DNA from: an uncultured virus (IMG/VR IMGVR_UViG_3300020148_000038)
Lineage: Duplodnaviria; Heunggongvirae; Uroviricota; Caudoviricetes
Strand: one strand, 5' to 3'
Virus record (IMG/VR): IMGVR_UViG_3300020148_000038
DNA: 64,000 nt
The position numbers were made by a program, and so were the translations under genes. The number at the start of each line of letters is the position of its first letter. Position 1 is the first letter of the stretch. The notes beneath the pieces were generated by a model. It worked only from the letters and a program-made list of their open reading frames with translations. It was not told the DNA's origin and made no database searches. Of this stretch, positions 973-63,392 are shown one piece after another.

Positions 973-993
973 GTGGTAGGTGTGGACTATTAT
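973..993 (+). promoter_or_regulatory. GT-class promoter (GTGG-N11-TATTAT), leaderless
   Basis: 6 nt before ATG 1000. Confidence 0.55.
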
Positions 994-999
994 TTTCGT

Positions 1000-1575
1000 A
1001 TGAACTTGAAGAGGACTCTGGTGGTCGATAAGAACGGCCGACAGACTCATGTGTGGAAGAAGGATGAGTCTTCTGCTGTCCATTCGCGCCGAGAATCTTC
1101 ATCGTATCCTGATTTTTACCTCACTCCACCTATCCACGTCGAACCTTATGATGCTGCTGATAAGGAGGCTATCTGGTCTAGTGTTCATCACATTGTTTCT
1201 GATGGTGGTCTTGAATACGAAAAAGTGATGGGACTGCTAGAGAAATATGAGGTTCTTTATGGTACGCCTCATGTGGGGAGAACTCGTGCCGTGTTTGAAA
1301 GAGGTGATGGTTACGTGGTCAAGGTGGCTATTTCCGATGAAGGGTTTTACGCTAACTTGATGGAGGTTCAAGCATCTTCATCTTCCGATAATTCGTATAT
1401 TCCTATGGCTCGCACTTCTTTCGCTGATGAGGACGAATATAATTCAGTCGTTGTTGCTGAGCAAGTTGTTCCCATCAAACTGGATTTCAAGAAGCTTCCT
1501 GATTGGGTACAATCTGTGGATGGCGGGCAGGTTGGTTATACCAGGGATGGGCGTTTAGTTGCCTATGATTTGTAG
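1000..1575 (+). CDS. DKNG-leader protein with protein-kinase-like cargo
   Basis: Starts MNLKRTLVVDKNGRQTHVWKK; GRTRAVF..YVVKVA..NLME and GYTRDGRLVAYD resemble a minimal kinase-like fold; start re-assigned from 973. Confidence 0.65.
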   Translation: MNLKRTLVVDKNGRQTHVWKKDESSAVHSRRESSSYPDFYLTPPIHVEPYDAADKEAIWSSVHHIVSDGGLEYEKVMGLLEKYEVLYGTPHVGRTRAVFERGDGYVVKVAISDEGFYANLMEVQASSSSDNSYIPMARTSFADEDEYNSVVVAEQVVPIKLDFKKLPDWVQSVDGGQVGYTRDGRLVAYDL

Positions 1576-1597
1576 TCGGTGCACCGCATAACGCCAA

Positions 1598-1626
1598 TTG
1601 ACATCAGAACTACAAACTGCTAGTAT
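1598..1626 (+). promoter_or_regulatory. sigmaA-type promoter TTGACA-17-TAGTAT, leaderless
   Basis: 6 nt before ATG 1633. Confidence 0.75.
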
Positions 1627-1632
1627 TGTTAT

Positions 1633-2244
1633 ATGAATATTACTTCCGGGACTCATTATGAGGTTCTTGGTGTCGATTCCAAGGCTACTGCTGAAGACAT
1701 CAAGCGTGCCTACCGGAAGCTTGTTCGTGTTCATCACCCCGACCGGGGAGGCGATTCCTCCATCTTCGTGAAGGTTCAAGAGGCTTACGATACCCTTTCG
1801 TCGCCTGGCAAGAGGATCGTGTACGACCGTAGCCTGGAATTCAACATCAGAAGCGGTTCTGGTTCATCGTCAAGCTCTGCATCTTCTGAGTCTGAGTGGC
1901 GGGATTCCGATGAGTATTATGCCGCAAGGGGTTGGGCGGATGACGAGGAAGATGACGGGTATTACAACTCGCACGACATGAGCGATGAGGAATACGACCG
2001 GGTTCATTTCGGGGCGGATTACGACTATTTCGGTGAGTCGGATGCTGCCTATAATGAGATTATCGACCTGATGGACAATATGCGAAGGGTTCTGCATGTG
2101 GTTCCGGATCTTTTTGATGCCATCGAGAAAGAATTGAATGCCGGGGTGAAGAATTTCGATGACAAAATCAAGATTCTGAGCGAAATCGGCAATCTTTTGG
2201 TCAGGGGCGCACAGGAGATGCGCGGTAGCGCCAACGAACTCTGA
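1633..2244 (+). CDS. DnaJ (J-domain) protein, class III type
   Basis: HYEVLGV..IKRAYRKLVRVHHPDRGG..F..VQEAYDTLS..R..YD; acidic linker follows. Confidence 0.9.
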   Translation: MNITSGTHYEVLGVDSKATAEDIKRAYRKLVRVHHPDRGGDSSIFVKVQEAYDTLSSPGKRIVYDRSLEFNIRSGSGSSSSSASSESEWRDSDEYYAARGWADDEEDDGYYNSHDMSDEEYDRVHFGADYDYFGESDAAYNEIIDLMDNMRRVLHVVPDLFDAIEKELNAGVKNFDDKIKILSEIGNLLVRGAQEMRGSANEL

Positions 2245-2261
2245 GCTATGCTCTACCCTGT

Positions 2262-2282
2262 GTGGTTTGCATGCTGTAACAT
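2262..2282 (+). promoter_or_regulatory. GT-class promoter (GTGG-N11-TAACAT), leaderless
   Basis: 7 nt before ATG 2290. Confidence 0.55.
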
Positions 2283-2289
2283 TTAGGTT

Positions 2290-3630: not shown

Positions 3631-3637
3631 CTCTAAC

Positions 3638-3666
3638 TTGACATTTTTGCTTTTTTGGAGTAAAAT
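3638..3666 (+). promoter_or_regulatory. sigmaA-type promoter TTGACA-17-TAAAAT, leaderless
   Basis: 6 nt before ATG 3673. Confidence 0.8.
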
Positions 3667-3672
3667 AATTAC

Positions 3673-4125: not shown

Positions 4126-4138
4126 TTCGTAGTTGTTG

Positions 4139-4178: not shown

Positions 4179-4213
4179 TGTGTGATGATACCAAAAGGGC
4201 AGGACTGCTTGAT

Positions 4214-4242
4214 TTGACAAATTCGCATTATCGGGCTAACAT
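4214..4242 (+). promoter_or_regulatory. sigmaA-type promoter TTGACA-17-TAACAT
   Basis: Upstream of GTG 4275. Confidence 0.7.
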
Positions 4243-6468: not shown

Positions 6469-6489
6469 GTCGGCGGATAAAAGTATTAT
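6469..6489 (+). promoter_or_regulatory. GTC-class promoter (GTCG-N11-TATTAT), leaderless
   Basis: 6 nt before ATG 6496. Confidence 0.65.
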
Positions 6490-9775: not shown

Positions 9776-9819
9776 ATATCGTCGCCTCATGATTTAATTT
9801 TAGCGAAAGAAGGTCAATT

Positions 9820-10987: not shown

Positions 10988-11008
10988 GTCGTACTTGACC
11001 TGTATTAT
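10988..11008 (+). promoter_or_regulatory. GTC-class promoter (GTCG-N11-TATTAT)
   Basis: Upstream of GAGAGG RBS and ATG 11029. Confidence 0.65.
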
Positions 11009-13638: not shown

Positions 13639-13659
13639 GTCGGGGTCTTACGATATTAT
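13639..13659 (+). promoter_or_regulatory. GTC-class promoter (GTCG-N11-TATTAT), leaderless
   Basis: 6 nt before ATG 13666. Confidence 0.65.
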
Positions 13660-13665
13660 TGTGGT

Positions 13666-14292
13666 ATGAAGCGCGATCACCTCATCCCTAAATCAATTGT
13701 TGACAAGAACGGACATAAGCGTACTGTCAAAGTGAAGCCTAATGGCGGCAATGCCATTGTCACCCCAATCAGAGGCGGGTCTGTCCCTCCCACGCCTGCA
13801 CGTGAGGCGGTTTCGTTGGCAGAACGAATCAAAGACAGCGACGTTGAACTTAAGCGCTCTGTTGCCGCTCACCCTTCTTTAAGCGCCGAGATTGCTGAAG
13901 AGCTAGCCAAGAGTTCTGATTTCGACGTACTGAAAAATCTTGCAGAAAACCCTCGCACCCCACTTCACATTTTAGAGGGACTGGCACAAAGAAATACCGT
14001 CAACTTGTCCGTAGTTGATAACCCTAGTTCTTCGCTTCGTATTTTGCGAAGCGTGAAGAATATGAATGCCTTTGATTCAGCTTCGCACGATGCTTTTTCT
14101 GCGATTGAGGATAGATTTCCTCAGTTGAAGGATGCAGAGACAGAAGAGGATAGGGAGCGAATCGCTGGCGATCCTAACGCTACACCCTATGAACTAGCAG
14201 ACTTGTCTCGTGATGCTTCATTAAGGGTTCGTCAGGCTGTTGCTGATAACCCAAGTACGCCAATGTATGTTCTCAACAACATGCCTGCCTAA
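13666..14292 (+). CDS. DKNG-leader protein with LRV/HEAT-like repeats
   Basis: MKRDHLIPKSIVDKNGHKRTVKVKP; LAENPRTP, IAGDPNATP, VADNPSTP repeats; start re-assigned from 13624. Confidence 0.85.
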   Translation: MKRDHLIPKSIVDKNGHKRTVKVKPNGGNAIVTPIRGGSVPPTPAREAVSLAERIKDSDVELKRSVAAHPSLSAEIAEELAKSSDFDVLKNLAENPRTPLHILEGLAQRNTVNLSVVDNPSSSLRILRSVKNMNAFDSASHDAFSAIEDRFPQLKDAETEEDRERIAGDPNATPYELADLSRDASLRVRQAVADNPSTPMYVLNNMPA

Positions 14293-14325
14293 TAACACCG
14301 TATTGCAAAACATTTGGATTGATTA

Positions 14326-15699
14326 ATGAAGACTGCAAACACAATACCCACAACGATTGTGGATAAAAACGGAAAGAAGACAACTGTTCATGTAAACCCT
14401 CATAATTATTTCGCGAACGTTGGACGAACGAGGGGTCAGGTTGCCCCCATAGTTGGTGCGAATAAGTCTATTTCTGATTTGCTTGAAGAGCGTGCTTTAC
14501 TACATCTCAATATCAATCGAAATGTAGAGAAAATGGATAAAGACACGCTAGTCCGTAAAATTGAGCAAAGGAAGCGGTTAGACGAAGCAATAGAAGAGCA
14601 GCTATCTTCTTTATCAAGGGATGATTTCGATGAACCGGCAGAGTTGGATATCGTTATAGATTCTCATTTCGTAGACGAAGGAGTAACAAAACCTCGGTGG
14701 CATGACCAAGATATCGTTGTTGTGGGACAAAAGAGAAAGCTTGGTGAGGTATCCGGTGGGAAACTATTTCACGGTTCTCCGACCAAGATTGATGTTGGTG
14801 GGCTTATCTCCCCACAAGAAGAACGCAACTTCAAACAATCTTCCGATTCCGCGATAAGCATCACTTCTGATGTTGGCATGGCCGCACATTGGGCAAGAGA
14901 GGCTGCTAAGCCCAAGGACGACGAAAACAGCGTCTACATTTATGAGATAGAACCAACCGGCGAAGTTGAGGGCTGGCGTATCGGGTTGGCAAATCAGGGA
15001 AAGAATATCACTCTGATGGAAGGCAGGACACCATCAGGGAAGATTATCGCTGTGCACGAAATAGGGATGTCGGGCGAGGTGAAACTAGAAGACGCTCCCG
15101 CTAATGTTCGCTACGGATACAGCAATCTACTTTCCGACATAGATGAACAACGTGACAAACTGATTGATGATGCCATAGAGGTTTCTCGTGCATGGATTGA
15201 TACATGTTCGTCCGCCGAGATATCTGCACTGAGAGATTACACAAACAGTAGTGATGAATATGCTATCAAAAGTACATCAGGCAAACTTTCTCAGAAATGG
15301 ATTGATTTTGAATCTGCTGTTGACCGCGCACCACGTTTGAAAGAGACTTTCGTCTCCTATACGGGAGTCAATTCGTACTATGTCAACAACATACTTTCTC
15401 AGGCGGAAAACGGTGAGGTAGATATAGATCGCGTTCTTTCCTCTTCGCTTAATCCTGCACAGGTGAATGGTTTTGCTACTTCTGATGAATACGGTCGCAC
15501 ATTGGCTTTAGAGGTTGAGACGAACAAGGGTGCTTTCATGGATATCGTAAGCCATTCTCCGCACGAGATGGAGGTTATGCTGCCCAAAGGTAAATACGAG
15601 GTCATCGAGGTGCTAGAAGATGTCACTTATCTTTGGGGACGAGAGAAGGGTTTTGGGCGAACGATTGATAAGGTTCTTAGACTTCGTTTTGTGGACTAA
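14326..15699 (+). CDS. DKNG-leader protein with two ADP-ribosyltransferase-like domains
   Basis: Leader IPTTIVDKNGKKTTVHVNP; domain 1 LFHGS..ISITS..AAHWA..VYIYEIEPTG (Arr-like); domain 2 ALRDYT..YTG..LSSS..HEMEVMLP (VIP2/Alt-like ExE). Confidence 0.7.
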   Translation: MKTANTIPTTIVDKNGKKTTVHVNPHNYFANVGRTRGQVAPIVGANKSISDLLEERALLHLNINRNVEKMDKDTLVRKIEQRKRLDEAIEEQLSSLSRDDFDEPAELDIVIDSHFVDEGVTKPRWHDQDIVVVGQKRKLGEVSGGKLFHGSPTKIDVGGLISPQEERNFKQSSDSAISITSDVGMAAHWAREAAKPKDDENSVYIYEIEPTGEVEGWRIGLANQGKNITLMEGRTPSGKIIAVHEIGMSGEVKLEDAPANVRYGYSNLLSDIDEQRDKLIDDAIEVSRAWIDTCSSAEISALRDYTNSSDEYAIKSTSGKLSQKWIDFESAVDRAPRLKETFVSYTGVNSYYVNNILSQAENGEVDIDRVLSSSLNPAQVNGFATSDEYGRTLALEVETNKGAFMDIVSHSPHEMEVMLPKGKYEVIEVLEDVTYLWGREKGFGRTIDKVLRLRFVD

Positions 15700-16002
15700 T
15701 TAATTCCACAAGTGCCCTTTTCTTGCGAAACTGGCTATCAATATCCTATTTGTAACCACTTTTGGGGCAAACCGACCGACCGGTATGTTTTAATTGTCAT
15801 TAAATATGTGGTTGCATAGATACATATTCTTTAACTGGGGCGACCCACCAATAGGAGTGTAAATATGCAATTGGCGCTTTAGCTATTGACTAATGCATGT
15901 CGATTCATACATAAGACCCTAGGTTGGGGTACAAAATGAGTGCCGATAATTGAATTTAATTTTAGAAACATGGTTACATGGATAGTAAGGAGCTATTCAC
16001 AA

Positions 16003-18855
16003 ATGACAAATGACAAAGCCGAAAACTCGATAATGCAGACTATCTCAATTGCCGTTTCCGCAATTTTGATTGCTGCTGGACTTGTTACCGCGCCCGGTTT
16101 GATTAACAACGCGCGAGACAATAACGCACGCACCGACCTTGCGAATATCGCTTACGCACAAGAATATATCTTGGGCGTACAAGGAAAGTATTTCGATGGT
16201 GAATACGTCACCATCGAACAAGAGATGGATGGTGAGGGCATTACCAAGGCAGAAGCAACCAATAACCTCCAATACCTTGCATCTACCGAAGGCTTGAATG
16301 GATTAGGTACTTCTGTAGCGCTTGCTGACTCCAATGGTGGTGTTGCTTTCTCCGTTTCTGGTGATGTTTCAGGATGGGCTTCTACGGTTTGTGATACAGA
16401 ACCTTATTTTGTCATCAAAGCTCAGTCTGGCTCTGGTAAGTGGTTCTATCGTGGTTCTGGCTCTGGTTTGACTTCATCTAACTATGCCGACATCTATTCG
16501 AAAATTCCCTCTAAGGTATTTTCGGGATGTTCGAGCTTTGGTAGTGACTTCGAGGAAACTGACGGACAGAGCAACGAGCCTACTATCTGTGACACTACAT
16601 CTGACGGTTTGAAGGCTAACCCATCCATTTGGGATGCTGGTTCTTCTAGACTTGTTGATGGCTACGGCGGACAGTTGACCAGCGAATTTGGTGACGCGCT
16701 TGATCTTTCCCAACTCGATCAATACATGCCAGCACATTCAACCGTTGCAAAGGATGGAACCACATGGCAGCCAGGTCCGCAGACCGACCCGGATGATGTA
16801 TTCTTCTGTATCGGTAACGATTTGGTTCCTCACACCCTTGGAAATGAAGGATTCACTGTTAACGATTTCAGTTCAATGAGTGGACCTGTTCAAACTTATA
16901 TAGGCAACAACTTTAAGTTGTGTGAGGGTTGGGCATCGACCATGAACGCTTGGGCGCGCGACGGTAAGATGATTATGATGTTCGATGGTGTGCCAAACGT
17001 CTACTCATTGAGCACCGATTATGACCCAGTTTCTCCTATGGCTGGTGACCCCGGCTACCCCGCTTCATGTGCTGAAGAGGACTTGAGCAACGTTGATCCA
17101 GAATGCGCCTATTCTGGCGTCCCTGTCTCTTTGAATGGTAGCGGTGACCACATATACGGCTGGAGTCTTACTGCGCAAACAAGCTACCCAGTCAATCCAA
17201 ATGTTGAGCCTTACGCCACCTATCTTCCATTCCTAGCGGATGCAGAACCGGGCGTGGGTGATTACAACGTCACGGATTTGAAGTTATGTATCGAGGGAGA
17301 GCTTGTTCAGAATGTAACTTATGACGAGTATTCATACGCCACAAGTTATGTTGATATGGGCGGACCCGGACAGTTATATCTCAATGAACTGCTGTTCGAT
17401 GGAATCTCCAACGAGCGTATGAATGCGTTCGGAAACAGCGGAAAGATCATTTTCCACATGAATAATGGCGCGCAAAATGTTCTCGATATCAGAGGATCTG
17501 GTGAAGAAATTTCTCCGTTGGATGACGGGCTTCCATCTACACCGATAGCGCCAGATTGTTCTGTTGGAACAAATTATGCTGAACAGTACGGCGGAAACGG
17601 TCCTTACAACCCATCATCAGGTTACACCATTATTCACGGTGAATACAATATGACATCGAGCAGTTGGTTGTCGTTCTCCTGTTCGGGATACCCGATTCCG
17701 GAGATGACGGTAAGCGGTAACCTTCCTTCCTCCGCTATGAATTTGAATCAGCCATCTTCATGGTATGAAACGATGAACTATTCGTTAGATTTCCCATCAC
17801 AGGGTGCTCTAGAGGCGGATACTCTTTACGAGTTCCAAGTAACCTTCACCAATTCTGCTGGTTCATGGACTTCGGATGAATACACCCAAACAGTCAACGG
17901 TTGGGAATCTAAGAGTGTTCAGGCTTCTGGAAGTGTTGTAGGTATTACCGGAGACGGTGAGACGTTATTCGTTCAGAAAGCGGATGGCGTTTACGAATGT
18001 CCTGCTGCCTTCTTTGGAAATTGCGAAACCGGTAGGATTTCCACTTCTCCACAATCTAGAGTATATAGTTCTGATTCGACTTTGTTCGGTTATGTTGTGA
18101 GAACGTTTAGCGACAACAGCATCTCTCACTCTCGTCTTGCCGGAATGAACACAACGCTCTCTGGTATCGGTTGTGTTTACGATAACGACGCCAGAATTGA
18201 TGTTTCAAATAACGGAGAAACTGTTACCGTAGTATGTAAAAACTCTTCAGGTGCTCCAACATTGCACGTTTGGCAAAGTGGAGCGGGCTGGTTGACAAGA
18301 ACCCTACCAAGTGGATACAGCATGCAACTTGGTTATCACCACGTTGATGTTGCAAATGCGTCATTTATGGCGACTATGGTCGGGAACACCATCTACCTGA
18401 GTCATGATGGTGGCGTAAGCTGGAGTGCAAGCAGAACCATTTCCGAAAGCTTCTCTGGTGGTGACGCTTGTGTATTCGACACAACAAACTACAGCGGAAA
18501 TGTTGCGGCCTTCAGTTGTTACAGCAATTCCCGAAGCTATGTATATGTTACCTATGACGGTGGTACTACCTGGCTCAAGAACTCCTTCATGGGCAAGGCA
18601 TATTCACTTTCTGTAGATGATGAGAGAATCAACATCACCGACCATAGCGGAAACATCTACACAGGAGATCATGTATACCGTGGCTGGACTCCTGCCGATA
18701 GCTACTACGCATCAGCGTTCAACACTTGGACAACAAACCATCTTGGTGGCGTAAGCAACTTCGCATACGTCGGCAAGACTGGTGGTGTAATGCTTAGGTC
18801 TTCTGGAAGCAATGCATACATCGTATTTGAGTGGAGCGACCCAAGCCTAGTATAA
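16003..18855 (+). CDS. Pilin-like N-terminus family copy 2; duplicated middle domain, Ig-like and Asp-box C-terminus
   Basis: Conserved AENSIMQT..AYAQE; start after AAGGAG RBS; SHDGGVSW, TYDGGTTW. Confidence 0.85.
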   Translation: MTNDKAENSIMQTISIAVSAILIAAGLVTAPGLINNARDNNARTDLANIAYAQEYILGVQGKYFDGEYVTIEQEMDGEGITKAEATNNLQYLASTEGLNGLGTSVALADSNGGVAFSVSGDVSGWASTVCDTEPYFVIKAQSGSGKWFYRGSGSGLTSSNYADIYSKIPSKVFSGCSSFGSDFEETDGQSNEPTICDTTSDGLKANPSIWDAGSSRLVDGYGGQLTSEFGDALDLSQLDQYMPAHSTVAKDGTTWQPGPQTDPDDVFFCIGNDLVPHTLGNEGFTVNDFSSMSGPVQTYIGNNFKLCEGWASTMNAWARDGKMIMMFDGVPNVYSLSTDYDPVSPMAGDPGYPASCAEEDLSNVDPECAYSGVPVSLNGSGDHIYGWSLTAQTSYPVNPNVEPYATYLPFLADAEPGVGDYNVTDLKLCIEGELVQNVTYDEYSYATSYVDMGGPGQLYLNELLFDGISNERMNAFGNSGKIIFHMNNGAQNVLDIRGSGEEISPLDDGLPSTPIAPDCSVGTNYAEQYGGNGPYNPSSGYTIIHGEYNMTSSSWLSFSCSGYPIPEMTVSGNLPSSAMNLNQPSSWYETMNYSLDFPSQGALEADTLYEFQVTFTNSAGSWTSDEYTQTVNGWESKSVQASGSVVGITGDGETLFVQKADGVYECPAAFFGNCETGRISTSPQSRVYSSDSTLFGYVVRTFSDNSISHSRLAGMNTTLSGIGCVYDNDARIDVSNNGETVTVVCKNSSGAPTLHVWQSGAGWLTRTLPSGYSMQLGYHHVDVANASFMATMVGNTIYLSHDGGVSWSASRTISESFSGGDACVFDTTNYSGNVAAFSCYSNSRSYVYVTYDGGTTWLKNSFMGKAYSLSVDDERINITDHSGNIYTGDHVYRGWTPADSYYASAFNTWTTNHLGGVSNFAYVGKTGGVMLRSSGSNAYIVFEWSDPSLV

Positions 18856-18935
18856 ATCAAGGCTGCATAAAAACCTGCATCAGATTGTTACTAGAACGCG
18901 GTACAAAACATAAACAACATAAAGGAAAACAAACA

Positions 18936-21416
18936 ATGGATACATTTATAAAAGGGAATTATTTGAGAATGCTTAGTGATAGAGCCGAAAACTCCATCAT
19001 GCAAACTATCTCTATTGCTGTTTCCGCGATCCTTATCGCGGCGGGACTTGTGACAGCACCAGGATTGATTAACAATGCCCGCGATAACAATGCCCGCACC
19101 GACCTTGCGAATATCGCTTATGCACAGGAGTACATTTTGGGTGTTCAAGGCAAGTATTTCGACGGCGACTATATCACAATAGAGCAGGAGATGACAGGAG
19201 ATGGCGTGTCCAAGGCTGAGGCAACCAACAACCTTCAGTATCTTGCATCTAATGAAGGTTTGAACGGATTAGGAACGTCCGTCTCTATTGCTGATAATTC
19301 GAGCGGTGGGGTGGCGTTTACTGTTTCCGGTGACGTTTCTGGACATGCTTCTATAGCCTGTGGTACAGAACCGTACTTTATTATCAAGGCTCAATCTGGC
19401 TCTGGTAAGTGGTTCTATCGTGGATCTGGTTCCGGTCTAACCTCGTCTAATTATTCTGAAATCTACCAAAATATACCTTCAAAGGTATTTGCCGAGTGTT
19501 CGGACTTTGGAAGCGGATTTGAAGAAACTAATGACCAAGGCGATGACCAAGATAATGAGCCGACCGTTTGTGACACCGCTCCTGAAGGATATCCTCTTAC
19601 GGAGACGCCTAATGTATATGACTACAGCATGTGGGGCGAGCAGGAGTACGGCTACGGTATTAGCATTAACTCCGACACAACCAACCTTCCGGTCGATACT
19701 GAAACAGAAGAATTTAAGACCAATCTACCTTCTTATGAGTTTGTGACCAAAAGCAATGGCACTGTCGGTAAGTGGATGGAACCTGAAGATATATTCTTCT
19801 GCATCGGTGATGAATTGGTTCCTCATAAATTAGCATATACCGGTGAGGACTACTATTACCAGGATTATGTCGCTGGTGGTGGCCCGTTGCAACTCCAAAT
19901 CACAACGGGGTGGGAACTCTGTGATGGATGGCCTTCGGCTATGAACGAATGGTGGCAGAACGGACGAATGATTGTTATGTATAACGGTCAGCCTAACGTA
20001 TTCGCTATGAAATTCACTCAAGAACCAATTAGCGCGCTTGCTGGTGACCCAGGATACCCGGCTTCCTGTGAGAACGCCTCTCCGACCCCAAGCGGTCCAC
20101 CGGCTCCAACGAACTTACCGAGCATCGAGAACTTCTCCAACTACTCGGAAGACCCCGATCACAGTCAGGGATGGCTGTATCACGGAGTTAAGAATGATAC
20201 CAACACAGCCGCAGCATTCTGGATAAATTACGCGGACACCGTAACAGTTGACGGCGATCTTCCAGGTAATGTTGAACTAACCCTAGGGTTCGATTTCGGT
20301 GATGGTGAACAGGTTTGGTATCTAACTGGTGACACAGATATCTCCGAAGCTGGGGTTTACCCCATCACGATTACGGCAGAGAATACCCTGGGATCAGTAC
20401 AACACCAAGTTGACCTCAAGGTGGTTGGGTGGGAACCTCTAGTCTCAACCAGTTACGAGAGTGGAATGAGCGTAGAGACAGCATCATCAAACGGTTCGGT
20501 TGTCATTGATAGAAGTTGGCGTCGTCACACTGCTGGAACGTCAGTTCAACTGAACCCGCCTGCTGGCACGAGATTCTTGTATGCCTTCATGAGCGACAAT
20601 GGAAGTATTGTGACAGCCGTTGTTCGCGATGATACAACAGAGTGGTACAGAGATGTCTACCTAACAACATCACTCGACGGAGGCTACACATGGGGTTCCT
20701 TGAACCAAATATGTAACACGAGTAGTTCTTGTGGTCCGACACGTGGACACGTTTCTAATGACGGCGATATTACGCTATGGCCGACAAACGGTTCGTCTAT
20801 CTATTACTCGGACGATAACGGCTTTAGCTGGGATATAAGGACAGTCCCCGGTGCCGGTGCCCATAAGCTTGCGGTTTCGGAAAATGGAGACGTTATCGCT
20901 CAGGTTCGCATCTCAGGGAGCACCGGTTACTTCGAAACCAGTTCTGACGGCGGCGTTACATGGTCACAGGTTGGACCCTCCAATGGGACGAATGTCATCT
21001 CATCCAATGTCGTGATCGCGGTCGATAACCTCGGAAATGTTCTGTACGCTCACGGTACAGGTGGAGGTGGTATCTCCTGGGGATACCTATCTACCAATGT
21101 CAGCAAAACCGAAACTAATCAGATGTTCACTGGCGATGCCATCAGCAGTAGTGGGATTGACCTACCAGGCACAAACAACGAGCTGTACTGGGTGAGCGGC
21201 GTAAGCCTATCCGGAGACGGCAAGATTGCGACGATTCTCACTCCTGGGTACATTTGGACCAAGGCTATGGAGTCCACCAGATCATCATCGTACAGCAGTT
21301 CCGCCGCTACGGGGTGGGTCGCTACCCCACTCGGGGACTACGCGAACACGACGCTGGTTCACCTTAGCGGACGCCACGTTGTAGTCGATGGGCAACAATT
21401 CATCTGGAGAGAATAA
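18936..21416 (+). CDS. Pilin-like N-terminus family copy 3; Ig-like and Asp-box C-terminus
   Basis: Conserved N-terminus; GDLPG..LTG..AGVYPITITAENTLGS Ig-like module; SLDGGYTW, SDDNGFSW, SSDGGVTW. Confidence 0.85.
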   Translation: MDTFIKGNYLRMLSDRAENSIMQTISIAVSAILIAAGLVTAPGLINNARDNNARTDLANIAYAQEYILGVQGKYFDGDYITIEQEMTGDGVSKAEATNNLQYLASNEGLNGLGTSVSIADNSSGGVAFTVSGDVSGHASIACGTEPYFIIKAQSGSGKWFYRGSGSGLTSSNYSEIYQNIPSKVFAECSDFGSGFEETNDQGDDQDNEPTVCDTAPEGYPLTETPNVYDYSMWGEQEYGYGISINSDTTNLPVDTETEEFKTNLPSYEFVTKSNGTVGKWMEPEDIFFCIGDELVPHKLAYTGEDYYYQDYVAGGGPLQLQITTGWELCDGWPSAMNEWWQNGRMIVMYNGQPNVFAMKFTQEPISALAGDPGYPASCENASPTPSGPPAPTNLPSIENFSNYSEDPDHSQGWLYHGVKNDTNTAAAFWINYADTVTVDGDLPGNVELTLGFDFGDGEQVWYLTGDTDISEAGVYPITITAENTLGSVQHQVDLKVVGWEPLVSTSYESGMSVETASSNGSVVIDRSWRRHTAGTSVQLNPPAGTRFLYAFMSDNGSIVTAVVRDDTTEWYRDVYLTTSLDGGYTWGSLNQICNTSSSCGPTRGHVSNDGDITLWPTNGSSIYYSDDNGFSWDIRTVPGAGAHKLAVSENGDVIAQVRISGSTGYFETSSDGGVTWSQVGPSNGTNVISSNVVIAVDNLGNVLYAHGTGGGGISWGYLSTNVSKTETNQMFTGDAISSSGIDLPGTNNELYWVSGVSLSGDGKIATILTPGYIWTKAMESTRSSSYSSSAATGWVATPLGDYANTTLVHLSGRHVVVDGQQFIWRE

Positions 21417-21433
21417 CGTCCACTAGATGACAG

Positions 21434-21476
21434 AAGGGCACCCTGGCACATTCAAAAGCGCCGGGGTGCCCTTTTA
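21434..21476 (+). terminator. Intrinsic terminator
   Basis: AAGGGCACCCTGGC..GCCGGGGTGCCCTTTT. Confidence 0.8.
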
Positions 21477-21621
21477 GTTCATAATCATCAGATTACGCGA
21501 CACAACCGCAATGATTGGTGAAGACAAACTCTCAGATTTGAAGCATCTGTCATCCGTAAACCAGTTCCCCGAGTTGTCGATATTAAACAAGCACTGTACC
21601 TTATTACGGTACTATTCGGTT

Positions 21622-22029
21622 GTGTACAACCAATATGACCCGAACTACTATCAGCATCCCTATATTCCGCACCACGAGACGGCAACGCCGAAAAGCGGTC
21701 GGACTCTCAGCGCGGTTTCGATGGCGGTTAATCTCATCATGCTGGCTATCATTGTTCTTCCTTCTCTGGTTTTCATAGGTATCGGTTTCTGGTTTGTTGA
21801 TGGGAATTACGACTTCAGTCTTGGGGTCGCTTTATTCCTTCCCGCCTTGCTCAATTTGGTGGGAAGCTGGGTACTTATTCCAGTGGCGATTGCATTTGTA
21901 ATCGTATCCATTGTGCAGTTAACAAGGAAACGGAATACAGGCTTTAATGTTGTTTCTATTATTGCCGGTTCACTTGCTTTCATTTTCAGTTCACTTCTTC
22001 TCTTGTACTGGTTCGTATCCTTCATTTGA
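21622..22029 (+). CDS. Membrane protein (3 TM), paralogue of 61469-61858
   Basis: GTG 6 nt after TACTAT; shares SIVQL.RKR..N..S with 61469. Confidence 0.7.
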   Translation: MYNQYDPNYYQHPYIPHHETATPKSGRTLSAVSMAVNLIMLAIIVLPSLVFIGIGFWFVDGNYDFSLGVALFLPALLNLVGSWVLIPVAIAFVIVSIVQLTRKRNTGFNVVSIIAGSLAFIFSSLLLLYWFVSFI

Positions 22030-22050: not shown

Positions 22051-22079
22051 TTGACCTTATCGAGGTTTTCTGGTAGCAT
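22051..22079 (+). promoter_or_regulatory. sigmaA-type promoter TTGACC-17-TAGCAT, leaderless
   Basis: 7 nt before ATG 22087. Confidence 0.7.
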
Positions 22080-23773: not shown

Positions 23774-23828
23774 GTTCTTATCCTGTCCTATCCTTATTTA
23801 TGAGGATACTAAGTTTTATGAGAGATTT

Positions 23829-25094: not shown

Positions 25095-25151
25095 AGAATA
25101 CCTTTGACCGACGACTTCCTTTGTGTATATGTCTGGCATCAATGCTAGTAT
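25095..25151. promoter_or_regulatory. Back-to-back GTC-class promoters
   Basis: Minus: GTCG-N11-TATTCT (25115-25095), 6 nt before ATG 25088; plus: GTCT-N11-TAGTAT (25131-25151), 6 nt before ATG 25158. Confidence 0.7.
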
Positions 25152-29397: not shown

Positions 29398-29579
29398 GAG
29401 GAATCCTTTCGAATAAGGGCGATGTTTGGATCGCAAGAAATAAGTGTTGTCTTCAAGCCCGAAGTGAACGATGTCACTTGACGTGAGCCTTGTTGCATAG
29501 ACGTAGAGACGTGTTGCTATGCAGCTAGTTCAGACGAGAACAACCATTTCTTTATAGCCTCTTTCGTGATTAACGGTTA

Positions 29580-30404: not shown

Positions 30405-30425
30405 ACTTTATCGGGAATAGACGAC
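30405..30425 (-). promoter_or_regulatory. GTC-class promoter (GTCG-N11-TAAAGT)
   Basis: Upstream of AGGAG RBS and ATG 30380. Confidence 0.65.
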
Positions 30426-31148: not shown

Positions 31149-31177
31149 TTGACATTGTTCGTGTTTTCAAGTATTAT
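31149..31177 (+). promoter_or_regulatory. sigmaA-type promoter TTGACA-17-TATTAT, leaderless
   Basis: 7 nt before ATG 31185. Confidence 0.75.
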
Positions 31178-35714: not shown

Positions 35715-35735
35715 GTCTGCACATTCTTGTATATT
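35715..35735 (+). promoter_or_regulatory. GTC-class promoter (GTCT-N11-TATATT), leaderless
   Basis: 6 nt before ATG 35742. Confidence 0.65.
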
Positions 35736-37693: not shown

Positions 37694-37722
37694 TTGACTT
37701 CTAATTGAAAGTCTGTTAGTGT
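37694..37722 (+). promoter_or_regulatory. sigmaA-type promoter TTGACT-17-TAGTGT, leaderless
   Basis: 6 nt before ATG 37729. Confidence 0.7.
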
Positions 37723-37728: not shown

Positions 37729-38091
37729 ATGACATATCGAGTTTTGGTAATTGATGATCTCCGTTCGTTTCGTGATGAGCGTGTAGAGGCAGAGGTTACC
37801 TATGCCCGCACTTCGGCCGAGGCTTTGGAGATTCTGAACGACGGAACCTCTTATGATGAGATCTGGTTTGACCATGACCTCGGAATGATTGACGATGACA
37901 GGGTGGATTCCACAATGCCTGTTGTGGATTTCCTTTCCGAGATGTCTTTCAATGACACTCCGTACCCTGTTGACACCGTGCTCGTTCACACAAGCAATCC
38001 GGTGGGCAGGGACAACATCATTCGGTCGCTTTCTCGATGGGGATACAACATCAAAAGCGTTCCTGCCGATGACTATTTCGTAGGAAGTTGA
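37729..38091 (+). CDS. Cyclic-phosphate-processing receiver-domain protein
   Basis: VLVIDDLR, ARTS.EA, FDHDLG, VHTSNPVG motifs. Confidence 0.8.
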   Translation: MTYRVLVIDDLRSFRDERVEAEVTYARTSAEALEILNDGTSYDEIWFDHDLGMIDDDRVDSTMPVVDFLSEMSFNDTPYPVDTVLVHTSNPVGRDNIIRSLSRWGYNIKSVPADDYFVGS

Positions 38092-39503: not shown

Positions 39504-39589
39504 CTATCCACTGGATGTATGACTTTTTAAGCTGAATCCGTTGTCATAGGAGGATGGTTAAATATAGATATCAGAAATGGAGTTCTTTG

Positions 39590-41406: not shown

Positions 41407-41427
41407 GTCTTATGTTTGCTCTAATCT
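41407..41427 (+). promoter_or_regulatory. GTC-class promoter (GTCT-N11-TAATCT), leaderless
   Basis: 6 nt before ATG 41434. Confidence 0.65.
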
Positions 41428-44482: not shown

Positions 44483-44503
44483 ATATTATAGGTGGTGTAG
44501 GAC
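44483..44503 (-). promoter_or_regulatory. GTC-class promoter (GTCC-N11-TAATAT), leaderless
   Basis: 6 nt before ATG 44476. Confidence 0.65.
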
Positions 44504-44590: not shown

Positions 44591-44611
44591 GTCAGCGGGA
44601 GAATATATGAT
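44591..44611 (+). promoter_or_regulatory. GTC-class promoter (GTCA-N11-TATGAT), leaderless
   Basis: 6 nt before GTG 44618. Confidence 0.65.
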
Positions 44612-45442: not shown

Positions 45443-45478
45443 TAGATGCTAGAATCTCTTCCAAGGAGAGCTTCTGTT

Positions 45479-45970
45479 ATGGGCAAGTATATTATTATCG
45501 ACATCGATGGTGTGTTGAATCCTTTCTATGCCCGGTACTCACAACTAGAGGGATTTACTGAATACAGCGCGCAGAAGTATTCGGCGTTCTTGAATAAAGA
45601 GTTGATAACTTCTTGGTTCAAAAAGTTCAAGGATGCTGATGTCAATCTTGTTTGGGGTAGCGCCTGGTTTCAAGAATCCAACCTTATTCTTGAAATGCTC
45701 GACATGGATGAGAAGTGGGAGTGCATCAAGATATCCACAGAAGACGTAGGCTTGGGAACTTGGAAGATTAAGTCTATTCGTGGGTGGGTAGAAGACAATA
45801 CATCTCCTAACGACCTTCTTGTTTGGATTGATGACGAGCTAGAAGAAGATGCTTTCTTATGGGCTGCCGAAAGAGGCAACATGCTTGCTATCAAACCTGC
45901 CAAGGAATCCGGTTTGGGTGAAACAGACTTTCAGGAAATCTGGGATTTCCTAGAGAGTCGTTCTGAGTGA
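45479..45970 (+). CDS. HAD-superfamily phosphatase (SAK-HAD type)
   Basis: IIDIDGVLN, WGSAW, WK, VWIDD, GL; AAGGAG RBS. Confidence 0.85.
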   Translation: MGKYIIIDIDGVLNPFYARYSQLEGFTEYSAQKYSAFLNKELITSWFKKFKDADVNLVWGSAWFQESNLILEMLDMDEKWECIKISTEDVGLGTWKIKSIRGWVEDNTSPNDLLVWIDDELEEDAFLWAAERGNMLAIKPAKESGLGETDFQEIWDFLESRSE

Positions 45971-46934: not shown

Positions 46935-47139
46935 GGGATTATGTCTCCTTCAATACCTCAACTTTACCAATGTCCGCAGACATCTGCTTGCGATGATAGA
47001 ATTGCCTTATGAATAAAAATGAAGATGTTCACGACGAAACTGATTGCGAGATATGCAACAGCGATTGGTATAAGAACATCGACTATAGCAAGCTTCGCCC
47101 TTTGACCGATGCAGACCGTGAGATGCTTCTGAAAGCTAT

Positions 47140-53211: not shown

Positions 53212-53300
53212 CTTATCAAGCTTAGGGGCTTTACAGACGGATTGTATATTCTTGGTGTCTTCAGTTCAAGATATAGTATGAACACCGAAAGGATCATTGA

Positions 53301-54258
53301 ATGTCTAACCTTAAACCTGAAGTTCGAGTCGATAAGAATGGTTACTCGTCACGTCAAAATTGATGGTTCTGGTATCAAGTCGGCTTTACCTGACATAGCA
53401 AAAGCTTTCTCCCATTACAGCGATAGAACCATATTTTCAGATCCAAAAATCAAGGTTGATGATGAAGACTACTTCTTTTTCACCGAAGAGCATGCAGTCG
53501 GAACTTTTAACGAAATCGCTGAAGCCGAGATAGAGAAAATTGTAGATGACGGCAATGTGCCTATCTACGTTCTTACTGGTCGGTCACATTACAATGACGC
53601 TAAGGACTGGCTCTGTAATCAACATTTTGATTTAAAGACAGATGAAAATATCAACGATTTCATGGTGAAGAATGAACGGTTCATTACAGAATTCTTAAAA
53701 CGTGAGTACAAAGCGGATGTCGATTGGAGTGACGATTGGGAATTCCGGTTGGTTTGGGAGTGTGAGTCTGTAGACGGATATTCTGTTTCTGATGCATGGG
53801 ATGAATGGGAGAAGACATCAGCGAGTAGATTCTTTAACGAGTCGGACCCAGGAACATTTGGTTCGCGAAACATGTGGGCTGCTCTGGCTAATGCAATTAA
53901 AGCCAGAGATGAAGTAGCCGATTCAAATTTTGAAGATATCGTTCTTCTTTCCAAGTCTCCGAATATCGACATACTTCGAGCGGTTTCTAAAGATGTCCAC
54001 GCGAGCTTTGGAAAATACGGTCATGTCATACGAGAGAATCTAGTCAATAACAAATCAACACCTTCAGATGTGCTCGCAAACGTGTTCTTCAACGCGCGGG
54101 TAGAGTCGTCTATGCTTGCAGTAGTCAACCATCCGAATCTCACAGAGGAAGATTTGGGTATGATGAGGGGTGCCGATATAAGCGACTCTGTTAGAGACGC
54201 AATTGATGCAAGATTCGCGAAGAATGTTATGAATGGGTTCGGCGGCGAGTCCATATAA
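53301..54258 (+). pseudogene. DKNG-leader protein with a frameshift inside the leader; C-terminal LRV-like repeats
   Basis: GTCT-N11-TATAGT (53257-53277), GAAAGGA RBS, ATG 53301 reads MSNLKPEVRVDKNG then goes out of frame; the main frame continues VTRHVKID. Confidence 0.7.
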
Positions 54259-54638: not shown

Positions 54639-54687
54639 TAGGTCTGCCTCGTTGTTATCGTAACAGCGGCTTGTGACAAGTAATGAA

Positions 54688-55245: not shown

Positions 55246-55344
55246 TCCCCCTTCTATTTAGATATTCATTCTATCTCTTTTGGGGTTGCTGTGAGAAAAA
55301 CCAAGAGTATTGAAAGGCATGCATATTCAAGATATGATTCTTAA

Positions 55345-58118: not shown

Positions 58119-58169
58119 TTATCGTGGTATGTCTTTGACAAAAGACGTTAGTTGGGCTACTGTTGTTTA

Positions 58170-59162: not shown

Positions 59163-59183
59163 GTCGTACTGACAGGATATACT
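59163..59183 (+). promoter_or_regulatory. GTC-class promoter (GTCG-N11-TATACT), leaderless
   Basis: 6 nt before ATG 59190. Confidence 0.7.
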
Positions 59184-60498: not shown

Positions 60499-60509
60499 CG
60501 CTTTACGTC

Positions 60510-61034
60510 TTAAATTCCGACTGACTGGAAGAACTTTGTTACTTCGTTAATGGTTTTCCCAGTCAATCCCTCGTGTGGGTTGGTGGCGATTGCTAGATGA
60601 GGCTCTTCAAAGTCACCATCATTAACCGTTTTGGTTGCGATGTCGTCAACCCACGCAAAAGGAAGGCGCTCTCGTTCTTCGAGGAACTTTCGTAGTCCTA
60701 TTTTCTTACCCGTCTCTGACCAATCAGAGAAGTCGCTAGGAAGAAAATCAAAGGGAACCCAGCCGGAAGAATGAACATCGAGAAGACTGTCCCAATAGGC
60801 ACGGGCGCTCTCTTTCCAGCCCGTGAGCCACCAAATCTCTATCCCGTGGGAATTAACCCATCGAAGAAATTCTGAAGTCTCTGAAGACCAATGAACGTGT
60901 TCTGTTCGCACTATCTTGTTGTCTTTGATGACGTTTAGAAGCGCTGTTCTATTGGCATGTGAAGGCACGCCGAATTCATCGATGAGATTTACCACCCCAT
61001 CGATGTCTAGAAATATGCGTGCTCTTGCTTTCAT
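60510..61034 (-). CDS. HAD-superfamily phosphatase (SAK-HAD type)
   Basis: FLDIDGVVN, WLTGW, GK, AWVDD, GLT; start re-assigned to MKARARIF. Confidence 0.82.
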   Translation of the reverse strand: MKARARIFLDIDGVVNLIDEFGVPSHANRTALLNVIKDNKIVRTEHVHWSSETSEFLRWVNSHGIEIWWLTGWKESARAYWDSLLDVHSSGWVPFDFLPSDFSDWSETGKKIGLRKFLEERERLPFAWVDDIATKTVNDGDFEEPHLAIATNPHEGLTGKTINEVTKFFQSVGI

Positions 61035-61080
61035 AAGAATGAATAGTACCATTTCGGTTCGTGCGAAAGGCTTGCTTGCG

Positions 61081-61350
61081 CTAAAGCGAGCTAAGAATAC
61101 CCTCTGCGATTTCTGCGCACATGATATAAGTCTCACGCTGGATATCGGTAACCCCGTCGAGCGAGGCATTTCCGCGAAGAGCGGTAATAAGAGCGGGAAT
61201 CCACTCGGTAGCAGACCTACCGTGATGAAGGCTGTTAACGACGCTTTCGGCGTTATCGAAAACGAACTTCGTCTCATAGTTTTTCTCTTCGAGAGCCAGT
61301 CCAGCATAGAAGTTGTACTCCTGCATGAGGTTGTACGCTACCGATGCCAT
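61081..61350 (-). CDS. Hypothetical protein
   Basis: AAGGAG RBS; TTGACA-17-TAATGT at 61418-61390. Confidence 0.75.
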   Translation of the reverse strand: MASVAYNLMQEYNFYAGLALEEKNYETKFVFDNAESVVNSLHHGRSATEWIPALITALRGNASLDGVTDIQRETYIMCAEIAEGILSSL

Positions 61351-61468
61351 TTGGCGTCTCCTTAGAACGGATGGTTTTAAACTAAAGACACATTAGCATT
61401 AAATGTTTCGGGTGTCAATTTCTGATATTAATTGAAAAACCATCAAGCTTACGTGTTAGCATTCACAC

Positions 61469-61858
61469 ATGTCTTATCAGCCTCCGTATGGACAAGCGCC
61501 TGTTTACGCTCCATCGCGACCCTCTGGTGGAGCAATTAGTAAGGTCGCTTTAATTATCAACGCGCTCGTTGTTTTTATTACCGCTCTTCCGCTTTTGTTA
61601 TTCACATTGCTGGGGTTGGCTGAAATGATTCATACTAGAGACATCAGTTCTCTACGAAACATCCTTGTCGTACCTGCATTCCTTATCGTGTTCACAAATA
61701 TTCTCAACATTCCTCTTAGCGGCGTATTCACCACTATATCTATCGTCCAGTTGTGCAGGAAACGTAGTTTTAAAGTAAACATCTTCTCTGTTGTGCTCGG
61801 GATTGTCGGGTTAGCGGCGTGTATTGTCGGCATTGTCTTATGGAACATGCTTACTTAA
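61469..61858 (+). CDS. Membrane protein (3 TM), paralogue of 21622-22029
   Basis: Pro/Tyr/Gln N-terminus, three hydrophobic helices; TAGCAT 6 nt before ATG. Confidence 0.8.
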   Translation: MSYQPPYGQAPVYAPSRPSGGAISKVALIINALVVFITALPLLLFTLLGLAEMIHTRDISSLRNILVVPAFLIVFTNILNIPLSGVFTTISIVQLCRKRSFKVNIFSVVLGIVGLAACIVGIVLWNMLT

Positions 61859-61872
61859 TTTTCACAATGTAC

Positions 61873-61901
61873 TTGACATGATACCAATTGTGTTGTATAG
61901 T
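61873..61901 (+). promoter_or_regulatory. sigmaA-type promoter TTGACA-17-TATAGT
   Basis: Near-consensus boxes with TG extension. Confidence 0.7.
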
Positions 61902-61980
61902 ATAAATACATTATCCGATGAACAAAGGAGAAAATCACGGATTAAGTAACATTCAAACCTTAAAATATTGAATCTTAAAT

Positions 61981-62385
61981 TTGTCTAACAGGGCGCTTCT
62001 GATTGAAATATATCAGGAGCGCCCTTTTGTTTACAAAATCTTTTATTGGTATTATCATTGCCTCGTGTTTGATACGGATGAACATGTCACGAGACAATGG
62101 TTCGCGGTTCGCAAGGCTATCAATGTCGTTGATGCAGAAGACACCGATAGCGCTATCGGTGTCTTAAGAGATATAGTTACAGACTATGACAAAAACCGAA
62201 ACTTCCTTTTCCCTTTTATTAGGATAAGTGAACTAATACCTATCGACCAAAAGGGATTATTCCTCGCCCTGTTCGAAGTCTCTTGGGTGCGTGATGCAGA
62301 TGAAGCCAAACCGTATGTTGATTGGATGCTCAAGGATTACGCCTCTACTCATCAGAAAAAGATACTGACGAATAGTTCAAGCTGA
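61981..62385 (+). CDS. Hypothetical protein (start uncertain)
   Basis: 134-aa ORF downstream of a strong promoter. Confidence 0.55.
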   Translation: MSNRALLIEIYQERPFVYKIFYWYYHCLVFDTDEHVTRQWFAVRKAINVVDAEDTDSAIGVLRDIVTDYDKNRNFLFPFIRISELIPIDQKGLFLALFEVSWVRDADEAKPYVDWMLKDYASTHQKKILTNSSS

Positions 62386-62604
62386 TGATTTGGCTTCGTA
62401 TGAATTAATCCAGTCTTGGCATATCTTCTCTGCTCTATTCTTTCCCCATGCGCGGAATATGAACGAGTATTTTGTGCCGTAAAGAGATATATGATGGGCT
62501 TTTCCTTCATATCTTCCGAACTTCAACTTGCGCACAGAGAAGTCGCTTTGTTCAATGGTTAGCTCGTCCGTCACCGGATAGCTTGCATTTTCTTTCTCTG
62601 TCAC
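62377..62604 (-). CDS. Small hypothetical protein
   Basis: GAAAGG RBS; TAAAAT -10 upstream. Confidence 0.65.
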   Translation of the reverse strand: MTEKENASYPVTDELTIEQSDFSVRKLKFGRYEGKAHHISLYGTKYSFIFRAWGKNRAEKICQDWINSYEAKSSA

Positions 62605-62639
62605 GAATCTGCCTTTCTCTTGTGTTTGATTTTATCAAA

Positions 62640-63326
62640 TCACAAGTTATGTGGCGATTTTACGGACTTCTTTTCCAATCCTTGTTTTACAGCCCGTATC
62701 CAAACATGAGGTTCTGCTATAAACGGGAATGGTGCTCCTGGGTCTATCTGTGAAAAGGTGTAATCAACAACAAAACCGGGCTTGTCGTCTCTAGCCTGAA
62801 GGAAGTTTGCGTAATGAACATTCAGTCCGTATGATTCTTGTTCTTCGGGAGTTAATTCCATGAAAATGACTTTGTTCTCATGGAAGTCCATTTCCAATCT
62901 GTCGATGGCATCATTTATAGACTCTGAGACGATCACACAGTTGGACTTCGCGTTTTCAGGTGATCGTAAATCCGATAGTGAAGAGATCCAATAATATTCT
63001 TCGCCTTGTGCTTCTAGCGCTTCGTGTCCGTACATATCGATGTTATCTACTGGTGGAAGAAAATCCGGGTTCGCATCCATAGTGAATCGTATTTCTTCAA
63101 CTAGCTCGCTCATAACGGATTTTGCAGGTTCAATGTAGTAGGGGTGGAAGTCGTTGTTGAAATCAAGGAGGTCGTTCACATTAATTTCAAATGGTTCGTC
63201 ACTGACTGTAGAAGATTTCGGGTTAACGGTCACGGTCGAAGCTTCACTTTTGGTTTCATCAGATTCCCATCTTCTTGATACTGGATTGAAATGATATCCG
63301 GGTTGGTTAGCTATTGGTTTCGACAT
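62640..63326 (-). CDS. Transglutaminase/papain-like Cys-His-Asp protein
   Basis: SNCVIVSE..HYANF..VVDYTFSQ; GTC-class promoter. Confidence 0.6.
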   Translation of the reverse strand: MSKPIANQPGYHFNPVSRRWESDETKSEASTVTVNPKSSTVSDEPFEINVNDLLDFNNDFHPYYIEPAKSVMSELVEEIRFTMDANPDFLPPVDNIDMYGHEALEAQGEEYYWISSLSDLRSPENAKSNCVIVSESINDAIDRLEMDFHENKVIFMELTPEEQESYGLNVHYANFLQARDDKPGFVVDYTFSQIDPGAPFPFIAEPHVWIRAVKQGLEKKSVKSPHNL

Positions 63327-63332
63327 ATGTAT

Positions 63333-63392
63333 AACTTATCAGCAATATGGGACATTCGAGGGTGGTCGCGTGTCATAGGACAGCATTATGAT
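63333..63392. promoter_or_regulatory. Back-to-back GTC-class promoters
   Basis: Minus: GTCC-N11-TAAGTT (63353-63333), 6 nt before ATG 63326; plus: GTCA-N11-TATGAT (63372-63392). Confidence 0.65.

Follow-up and report, generated by a model that had tools for sequence, protein, structure and literature searches.

A candidate PafBC-type (RecA-NDp) promoter in front of a tagged gene family on an uncultured huge phage-like element

A 64-kb stretch of DNA from an uncultured Caudoviricetes virus (IMG/VR record IMGVR_UViG_3300020148_000038; ~45% GC; hereafter "the window", by which we mean the whole of this stretch) raises the question of which transcription factor reads a recurrent promoter element, GTC-N12-TANNNT (N12 being twelve arbitrary bases), that is found in front of a set of genes with a common 5' end. 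The initial annotation had named these the leader genes, had regarded their promoters as a class of its own read by a phage sigma factor or activator, and had mentioned the host proteins WhiA and WhiB as a further option. We find that the class is real and not novel, since its motif equals the published consensus for the actinobacterial activator PafBC, also known as the RecA-NDp motif. We therefore consider it probable that GTC-N12-TANNNT is a PafBC-type (RecA-NDp) hybrid promoter, and that host PafBC, activated by single-stranded DNA (ssDNA), would drive the gene family. Only a minority of the open reading frames (ORFs) of the window could be assigned to a Pfam or PHROG family, no transfer RNA (tRNA) genes were detected in the 64 kb, and the segment from 14001 to 22000 had no DNA match in the collections of isolate phages.

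The leader genes are 23 paralogs that have an N-terminal module of ~25 amino acids in common and carry unrelated C-terminal parts. The module, approximately M-x3-5-(I/V)P-T-x-IVDKNGK-x-TTV-(H/Y)-x-x-P, is present in 22 ORFs of the window, the 23rd member starting at position 53301, and no Pfam family covers it. Family genes start on the plus strand at 1000, 2290, 6496, 9820, 11029, 13666, 14326, 25158, 25869, 35742, 39590, 40365, 41434, 44618, 53301, 59190 and 63414, and on the minus strand at 23773, 25088, 30380, 44476, 46934 and 54638. A profile of the module retrieved 800 representative proteins (E <= 0.001). Almost all of these begin with it at residue 1, and a few large proteins contain internal copies. 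The module pattern also led to an IMG/VR contig of 202,737 bp and 51% GC, here called G001, which is distinct from the window sequence and encodes 17 module genes (E <= 2e-4) and one weak member. A metagenome scan yielded 70 loci on many contigs (the longest being 231 kb), and motifs were counted in 66 non-redundant 5' regions of family genes. A tblastn search with a family protein gave no match in isolate phages or plasmids, and a search for the module in the GTDB species genomes gave just two matches, both internal and spurious.

Each of the 16 exact GTC-N12-TANNNT sites reported previously for the window was found at its coordinates and on its strand. In ten of them the −10 box lies 6 nt upstream of an ATG or GTG codon, which is a leaderless geometry: 6469..6489 (+; box TATTAT, ATG at 6496, a family gene with LRV repeats), 13639..13659 (+; ATG at 13666, a family gene followed by the family gene at 14326), 25095..25115 (−; ATG at 25088), 25131..25151 (+; ATG at 25158, followed by the family gene at 25869), 35715..35735 (+; ATG at 35742), 41407..41427 (+; ATG at 41434), 44483..44503 (−; ATG at 44476), 44591..44611 (+; GTG at 44618), 59163..59183 (+; ATG at 59190, a divergent family member) and 63333..63353 (−; ATG at 63326), the last being the sole clear site whose gene escapes the hidden Markov model of the family. 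The base 7 nt after the box was the A of an ATG in 10 of the 16 sites. In the other six the box is 18–26 nt upstream of the start codon and a Shine-Dalgarno-like sequence lies between: 10988..11008 (+; 20-nt leader, gene at 11029), 30405..30425 (−; 24 nt, gene at 30380), 46961..46981 (−; 26 nt, gene at 46934), 53257..53277 (+; 23 nt to the ATG at 53301, a frame-broken family gene), 54657..54677 (−; 18 nt, gene at 54638) and 63372..63392 (+; 21 nt, gene at 63414). The sites at 25095–25151 and at 63333–63392 form divergent, back-to-back promoter pairs in which the GTC triplets are 15 and 18 bp apart. Counted by hand, the exact motif thus stands before 15 of the 23 family genes. The five near matches proved to be as described: GTG for GTC at 973..993 (+; 6 nt to the ATG at 1000) and 2262..2282 (+; 7 nt to the ATG at 2290), ATC for GTC at 23806..23826 (−; gene at 23773, encoding an RlaP-type nucleotidyltransferase), GTC with a spacing shorter by one base at 9781..9800 (+; gene at 9820), and an imperfect −10 box, GTC-N12-TTAAAT, at 39543..39563 (+; gene at 39590, followed by 40365). 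The three leader genes without a motif of their own (14326, 25869 and 40365) are second genes, located 33, 36 and 1 nt, respectively, from the preceding family gene.

Is the motif enriched over chance? The answer depends on what is counted. Across the whole window the excess is weak: 41 sites were found, compared with 29.2 +/- 4.8 in shuffled sequences (at least 41 in 2 of 100 shuffles) and with an expectation of 28.9 +/- 6.0 in a second set, and the 25 sites left after removal of the 16 promoter-placed ones are at about chance level. On G001 the whole-contig count is not raised at all (64 sites versus 75 +/- 9). The enrichment by position and gene family at a fixed spacing is, by contrast, strong. 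When the 100 nt 5' of genes were inspected in the automatic ORF calls of the window (21 family and 56 non-family genes), the motif was present upstream of 13 of the 21 family genes and of 3 of the 56 others (Fisher p = 4.3e-7). One of these three, the match at 53257, actually serves the frameshifted family gene starting at 53301, and the family gene at 54638 (−), which has the motif, is absent from the automatic calls. In G001, 11 of 14 called family genes carry the motif, as do 5 of 205 other genes (p = 1.4e-12); by eye, it is found at 12 of the 17 module genes. At spacings other than N12, matches were rare among the family genes both in the window (0–3 of 21 at each of N8 to N17) and in G001 (0–2 of 14). 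The metagenome relatives gave the same picture, with the N12 motif in 33 of the 66 5' regions and 0–5 of 66 at each other spacing from N6 to N19; in these sites the distance from box to start codon is either 6–7 nt (11 cases) or 18–42 nt (22 cases), while the distance from GTC to the box is constant. The signal of the motif is in its position and its gene family and not in its overall count, and these family versus non-family counts bear out the claim that a single gene family is set apart by it as a regulon.

In an unbiased check we took 30 family genes from the three data sets and chose the −10 box solely by its distance to the start codon. At the three positions of the triplet, G, T and C were found in 26, 27 and 26 of the 30 genes, with adjacent positions near random, and in the leaderless subset the complete GTC was present in 21 of 30. 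Logos built from 27 sites and from 33 metagenome sites read t-G-T-C-r, 11 nt, g-n-T-A-n-n-a-T, with the t in front of GTC present in 21 of the 27, a G two bases 5' of the box, and an A at the seventh base after it in 18 of 27 and 25 of 33 sites. In these logos t-G-T-C-r falls at −28 to −24, and the region 18–23 nt 5' of the box holds no information, which means that there is no −35 consensus. The logos, together with the restriction to the family, support a promoter class of its own in which an ordinary −10 is not accompanied by a −35.

Genes outside the family can have promoters of another kind, and this contrast class with a 17-nt spacer is genuine, all eight of its previously listed sites having been verified: TTGACA-17-TAGTAT at 1598..1626 (+; 6 nt to the ATG at 1633 of a DnaJ-domain gene), TTGACA-17-TAAAAT at 3638..3666 (+; ATG at 3673), TTGACA-17-TAACAT at 4214..4242 (+), TTGACC-17-TAGCAT at 22051..22079 (+; ATG at 22087), TTGACA-17-TATTAT at 31149..31177 (+; ATG at 31185), TTGACT-17-TAGTGT at 37694..37722 (+; ATG at 37729 of a cREC_REC gene), TTGAAA-17-TATGAT at 55310..55338 (+; ATG at 55345) and TTGACA-17-TACTGT at 58135..58163 (+; GTG at 58170). 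TTGAC with a spacer of 17 precedes 8 of 56 non-family and 0 of 21 family genes in the window, and 9 of 205 versus 0 of 14 in G001. In the TTGACN-17 class the G two bases 5' of the box is found in 16 of 25 sites, as it is in the GTC class; gnTAnnnT and an A at the expected start are common to both. Because the −10 features are the same, there would be one mode of −10 recognition with two kinds of upstream element, which fits a single sigma factor with two upstream modes.

The known promoter that combines these features is that of PafBC. Its site has the consensus tGTCgg(N10)tA(N3)T; the 5' part, termed the −26 element, is located at −28 to −23, there is no −35 element, and the −10 is of the SigA type (PMC8635444). 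The GTC triplet is reported to be strictly conserved across actinobacteria, and the gg after it in no more than 50% of the sites (PMC8635444). This PafBC motif is the same as the older RecA-NDp motif (PMC6789036). GTC followed by gg and N10 amounts to GTC-N12, and each base of the window motif therefore has its counterpart, at the same place, in the PafBC promoter: GTC-N12-TANNNT, no −35 consensus, a housekeeping SigA-type −10, and gg in part retained. The motif string of the older literature reportedly goes back to Gamulin et al. 2004. In Streptomyces, maps of transcription start sites (TSSs) describe, beside a TTGAC class with 18–19 nt, a second class in which TGTC is separated by 12 nt from a TANNNT box that is itself unchanged (S. 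clavuligerus, PMC6614810; S. lividans, PMC6742748), and tie the TGTC class to DNA-damage and repair genes. The structure of the PafBC complex, determined by cryo-electron microscopy, has the helix-turn-helix (HTH) of PafC in contact with SigA domain 4, while the HTH of PafB reads the two guanines of GTC, an arrangement called sigma adaptation; in the solved complex PafB reads −28 to −23 (PMC8635444). The earlier placement of the element at about −27 to −24 agrees with this, and the match to −28 to −23 holds provided that transcription starts at the predicted point 7 nt after the box. The promoter class as such is thus already known, at textbook level for mycobacteria and Streptomyces, and is not a new transcription mechanism.

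Carried over to the window, the PafBC model predicts the following course of events. The host's housekeeping RNA polymerase containing SigA would read the −10 box gnTAnnnT; a −35 box is missing, and PafBC, a heterodimeric activator with WYL domains, would insert between SigA domain 4 and the DNA, with the PafB HTH reading both guanines of the triplet GTC, which occupies −27 to −25. ssDNA is reported to switch PafBC on by binding to its WYL domains (PMC11804915), PafBC being active solely in this bound state. The ~23 family genes of the window and the copies in its relatives would then stay silent until ssDNA accumulates in the host, be it through DNA damage, through the replication or entry of the element itself or through nuclease attack, and would fire together, many of their mRNAs being leaderless and starting at the A of the ATG. 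The family genes are thus probably switched on when ssDNA appears in the host; under PafBC control, induction is predicted to follow ssDNA and not a fixed time of infection.

On what kind of element, and in what kind of host, would this switch operate? G001 encodes replisome genes, NrdEFI, ThyX, RtcB, two T2SSE-like ATPases and an FtsK-like protein, and no capsid, portal or terminase was recognized among 140 of its ORFs with Pfam (1e-5) or 95 ORFs with PHROGs (1e-6). Between ~64.9 and 81.8 kb (L019 4899 to L020 1841) it carries 64 tRNA genes and one transfer-messenger RNA (tmRNA) gene (tag ANASRNDFALAA), all on one strand, an array that favours a huge phage. The contig also holds type I-E cas genes (Cas3, Cse1, the Cas7-like CT1975, Cas5 and Cas6e; L021 14277 to L022 1760, and L103). 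Judged by its sequence, G001 is a huge phage or a phage-like megaelement. At L025:4259-4942 it encodes a protein of the WhiB family (26.5 bits, above the cut-off), 227 amino acids long with an N-terminal extension of ~80 residues and a basic C-terminal tail, whose own promoter resembles, by eye, TTGTGC-17-TAGATT. The exact sequence of this protein is found again on a contig of 654,127 bp, and from this it follows that G001 is a piece of something larger; relatives with 57–88% identity are located on contigs of up to 536 kb. The WhiB protein of G001 had no other locus in IMG/VR, and a search of the window for a relative of it found none.

WhiB proteins are described as confined to actinobacteria and their phages (PMC13013590). 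The DnaE protein of G001 is closest to that of Streptomyces phages (37% identity), and the RlaP-type transferase of the window had 341 of its 431 phage matches in Mycobacterium phages, its relatives being mostly from Mycobacterium and Gordonia phages. In phage Bxz1 the transferase gene is located within an operon at the genome end. These indirect signs suggest that the host is probably an actinobacterium. Readers of the motif were looked for in 266 kb, that is, in the window and in G001. G001 matched neither Sigma70_r2 nor WYL at E <= 1, neither family turned up among the window ORFs that were scanned with Pfam, and the long ORFs of the window and of G001 did not contain the DxDGD motif of phage-type RNA polymerases. 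Since no reader was found in the 266 kb and the signs point to an actinobacterium, host PafBC is the simplest reading.

Several observations weigh against this assignment. Eight of the 23 family genes in the window lack the exact motif, five of them having one-step variants (GTG twice, ATC, the spacing minus one, and the box TTAAAT) and three being second genes of their units. The fourth base of the window motif is G in only 6 of 16 sites, the gg after GTC being weak. The relatives and the window have a common ancestry, so that their sites are not fully independent events. A GC content of 45% is low for most actinobacteria, and the visible sequence consists of 64 kb plus 202 kb of elements that perhaps exceed 600 kb, with the result that an activator or sigma gene may lie outside it. 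The sequences show the motif, its fixed spacing, its restriction to the family, its conservation in relatives, the −10 in common with the other class and the A at the expected start; from these and the signs above we infer that PafBC is the reader, that it is supplied by the host, and that this host belongs to the actinobacteria.

A reader encoded by the element itself, either an analogue of PafBC or some other adaptor bound to sigma domain 4 in the manner of MotA/AsiA, is in our estimate unlikely. The MotA box of phage T4, positioned 12 +/- 1 bp from an ordinary −10, has the same geometry (PMC2988021), the WhiB-family protein of G001 with its additional N- and C-terminal parts would be a candidate for such a role, and the greater part of the element extends beyond the 202 kb of G001. 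An unrelated reader, on the other hand, would not need to match the host PafBC consensus base for base; scans of G001 and of the window ORFs revealed no family of the WYL, MotA or AsiA kind, a search of the window gave no WhiB relative, and nothing in the WhiA/WhiB literature that we found describes a WhiB protein reading GTC at −26. A new class resembling sigma appropriation, with the WhiB fusion as its reader, had been a candidate and was demoted to a minor rival after the match to the PafBC consensus. Sigma genes are common in huge phages. One might sit in the unseen part of the element, and an alternative sigma factor, encoded by the phage or the host, could read GTC as a −35 displaced toward the −10 by a short spacer; the authors of the Streptomyces TSS maps indeed proposed a distinct sigma for their TGTC class with its 12-nt spacer (PMC6614810; PMC6742748). 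We regard this as quite improbable, given that the −10 hexamer, the G two bases 5' of it and the A at the start site are equal to those of the TTGACN class, that the G of GTC is 15 nt from the box, compared with 23 nt for TTGACA, which should be beyond the known reach of sigma domain 4, and that the motif is assigned to SigA plus PafBC by cryo-electron microscopy (PMC8635444). The phage sigma factor of the initial annotation accordingly found no backing, G001 in its 202 kb having no Sigma70_r2 match at E <= 1 and the −10 part being shared with the TTGACN class. Nor do the 27 and 33 aligned sites contain conserved positions 5' of GTC that would make it the −10 of an extracytoplasmic function (ECF)-type −35/−10 pair, with a −35 located 16–17 nt upstream.

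The involvement of host WhiA/WhiB, proposed because TGTC read on the other strand gives a portion of GACAC, the WhiA motif, seems to us very improbable. The reverse complement of tGTC, GACa, does supply four of the five WhiA bases, and the C-terminal domain of WhiA is reported to read GACA as sigma domain 4 reads TTGACA (PMC10243135). However, GACA alone is conserved, the fifth base of GACAC being retained in no more than 9 of 27 sites and 8 of 33, and the geometry differs: WhiA binds upstream of the −35 at distances and in orientations that vary (PMC10243135), whereas the window element lies inside the spacer at a fixed distance. We give equally little credence to a motif without function, be it a relic that spread with the 5' ends when the family genes were duplicated or a product of chance. 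It is true that the genes are paralogs, that the relatives are of common descent, and that the whole-sequence count shows a weak excess in the window and none in G001. Against this stand the retention of G, T and C in 26–27 of 30 genes amid random flanks, a distance to the start codon that varies from 6 to 42 nt while the distance to the −10 box does not, and the scarcity of other spacings among the metagenome 5' regions. Control by host PafBC remains the reading that we prefer.

The proteins placed under the putative PafBC-type promoters have C-terminal parts of diverse kinds, among them, in the window, an RlaP-type nucleotidyltransferase, LRV repeats and an Arr-like domain. The gene at 53301-53360 breaks frame just past DKNG, and its remainder runs on in the frame of ORF 53242-54258; a sequencing error, a programmed shift and decay into a pseudogene would each be possible explanations. 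G001 combines the module at 123480-124523 (L022:3480-4523) with an ArdC-N (anti-restriction, ssDNA-binding) domain, in a gene that has a PafBC-type promoter. Three further G001 sites of the form GTCGG-N10-TANNNT, at 187835, 105447 and 8389, precede non-family or weak-family genes and may be true PafBC-type promoters as well. A cluster of RNA-repair-type domains occurs in the window at 37729-38091 (cREC_REC), 45446-45970 and 60510-61307 (HAD_SAK_2), 28792-29436 (RNA ligase) and 22877-23773 (RlaP), and G001 carries RtcB and a transferase of the poly(A)-polymerase type. In a protein of 1,919 amino acids (P0002), four copies of the module stand N-terminal to one domain each (RadC, ART-PolyVal, DUF3990 as a weak match, and PBECR3), a layout that is the architecture of the polyvalent proteins (PMC5512222). 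These are thought to be delivered together with DNA by phages and conjugative elements (PMC5512222), and we saw no description of the module in that study. The common architecture suggests that the genes of the PafBC-type regulon may encode effectors that are delivered or that act in counter-defence.

What appears to be new is the context, in which a huge phage-like element wires a family of effector-like genes to the host's activator of the DNA-damage response. Among papers that mention both PafBC and phage, we saw none that reports PafBC-type promoters for phages or plasmids; one study reportedly links PafBC to phage resistance (Rafique et al. 2025, as cited in PMC12848934). The mobile element would appear to use the PafBC/ssDNA switch of its host for an entire gene family. 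More tentatively, we can imagine a clade of huge actinobacterial phage-like elements that has wired its whole arsenal, ~20 module-tagged genes per genome, to the host ssDNA sensor PafBC, so that RNA-repair, ADP-ribosyltransferase-like and ArdC-like proteins are made when ssDNA appears through the element's own replication or through host nucleases, host damage signalling then serving as a timer of counter-defence. For practical purposes, the motif offers an inexpensive marker by which uncultured phages and plasmids could be assigned to actinobacterial hosts from sequence. It also provides a testable expression rule for a large uncharacterized family, which comprises at least 800 clusters and has links to polyvalent effector proteins.

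Among known systems, the middle promoters of phage T4 likewise replace the −35 by an upstream element 12 +/- 1 bp from the −10 and define a regulon of a mobile element (PMC2988021); their MotA box, TGCTTtA, differs in sequence, and sigma domain 4 is remodelled there by the phage proteins MotA and AsiA, homologues of which were found neither in G001 nor in the window ORFs. Promoters controlled by WhiA/WhiB are actinobacterial, involve a factor on sigma domain 4 and have GACA in common with the window motif; unlike the window promoters, they are described as needing the full GACAC, at a site that lies upstream of the −35 and whose spacing and strand vary (PMC10243135). The M. tuberculosis 13E12 repeat family of insertion elements, which is induced by DNA damage and carries RecA_NDp (PMC3381160), sets a precedent for the window family in that both are multi-copy, linked to mobile elements and equipped with this promoter; the 13E12 proteins are unrelated to those of the window, and their copies are chromosomal and often also under LexA. 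The TGTC class of Streptomyces has the same bases, the same 12-nt spacer and the same TANNNT as the window class; it is TSS-mapped, chromosomal and enriched for replication and repair genes, whereas the window class is a prediction on a mobile element. The PafBC promoters themselves agree with those of the window in consensus, in the element at −28 to −23 (a position predicted for the window), in the missing −35, in the housekeeping −10 and in the GTC core. The window promoters differ in that many are fused to the start codon, that gg is weak, and that their dependence on PafBC is predicted; and while the PafBC promoters reported in the literature serve chromosomal repair genes, those of the window serve one paralogous gene family on a giant phage-like element.

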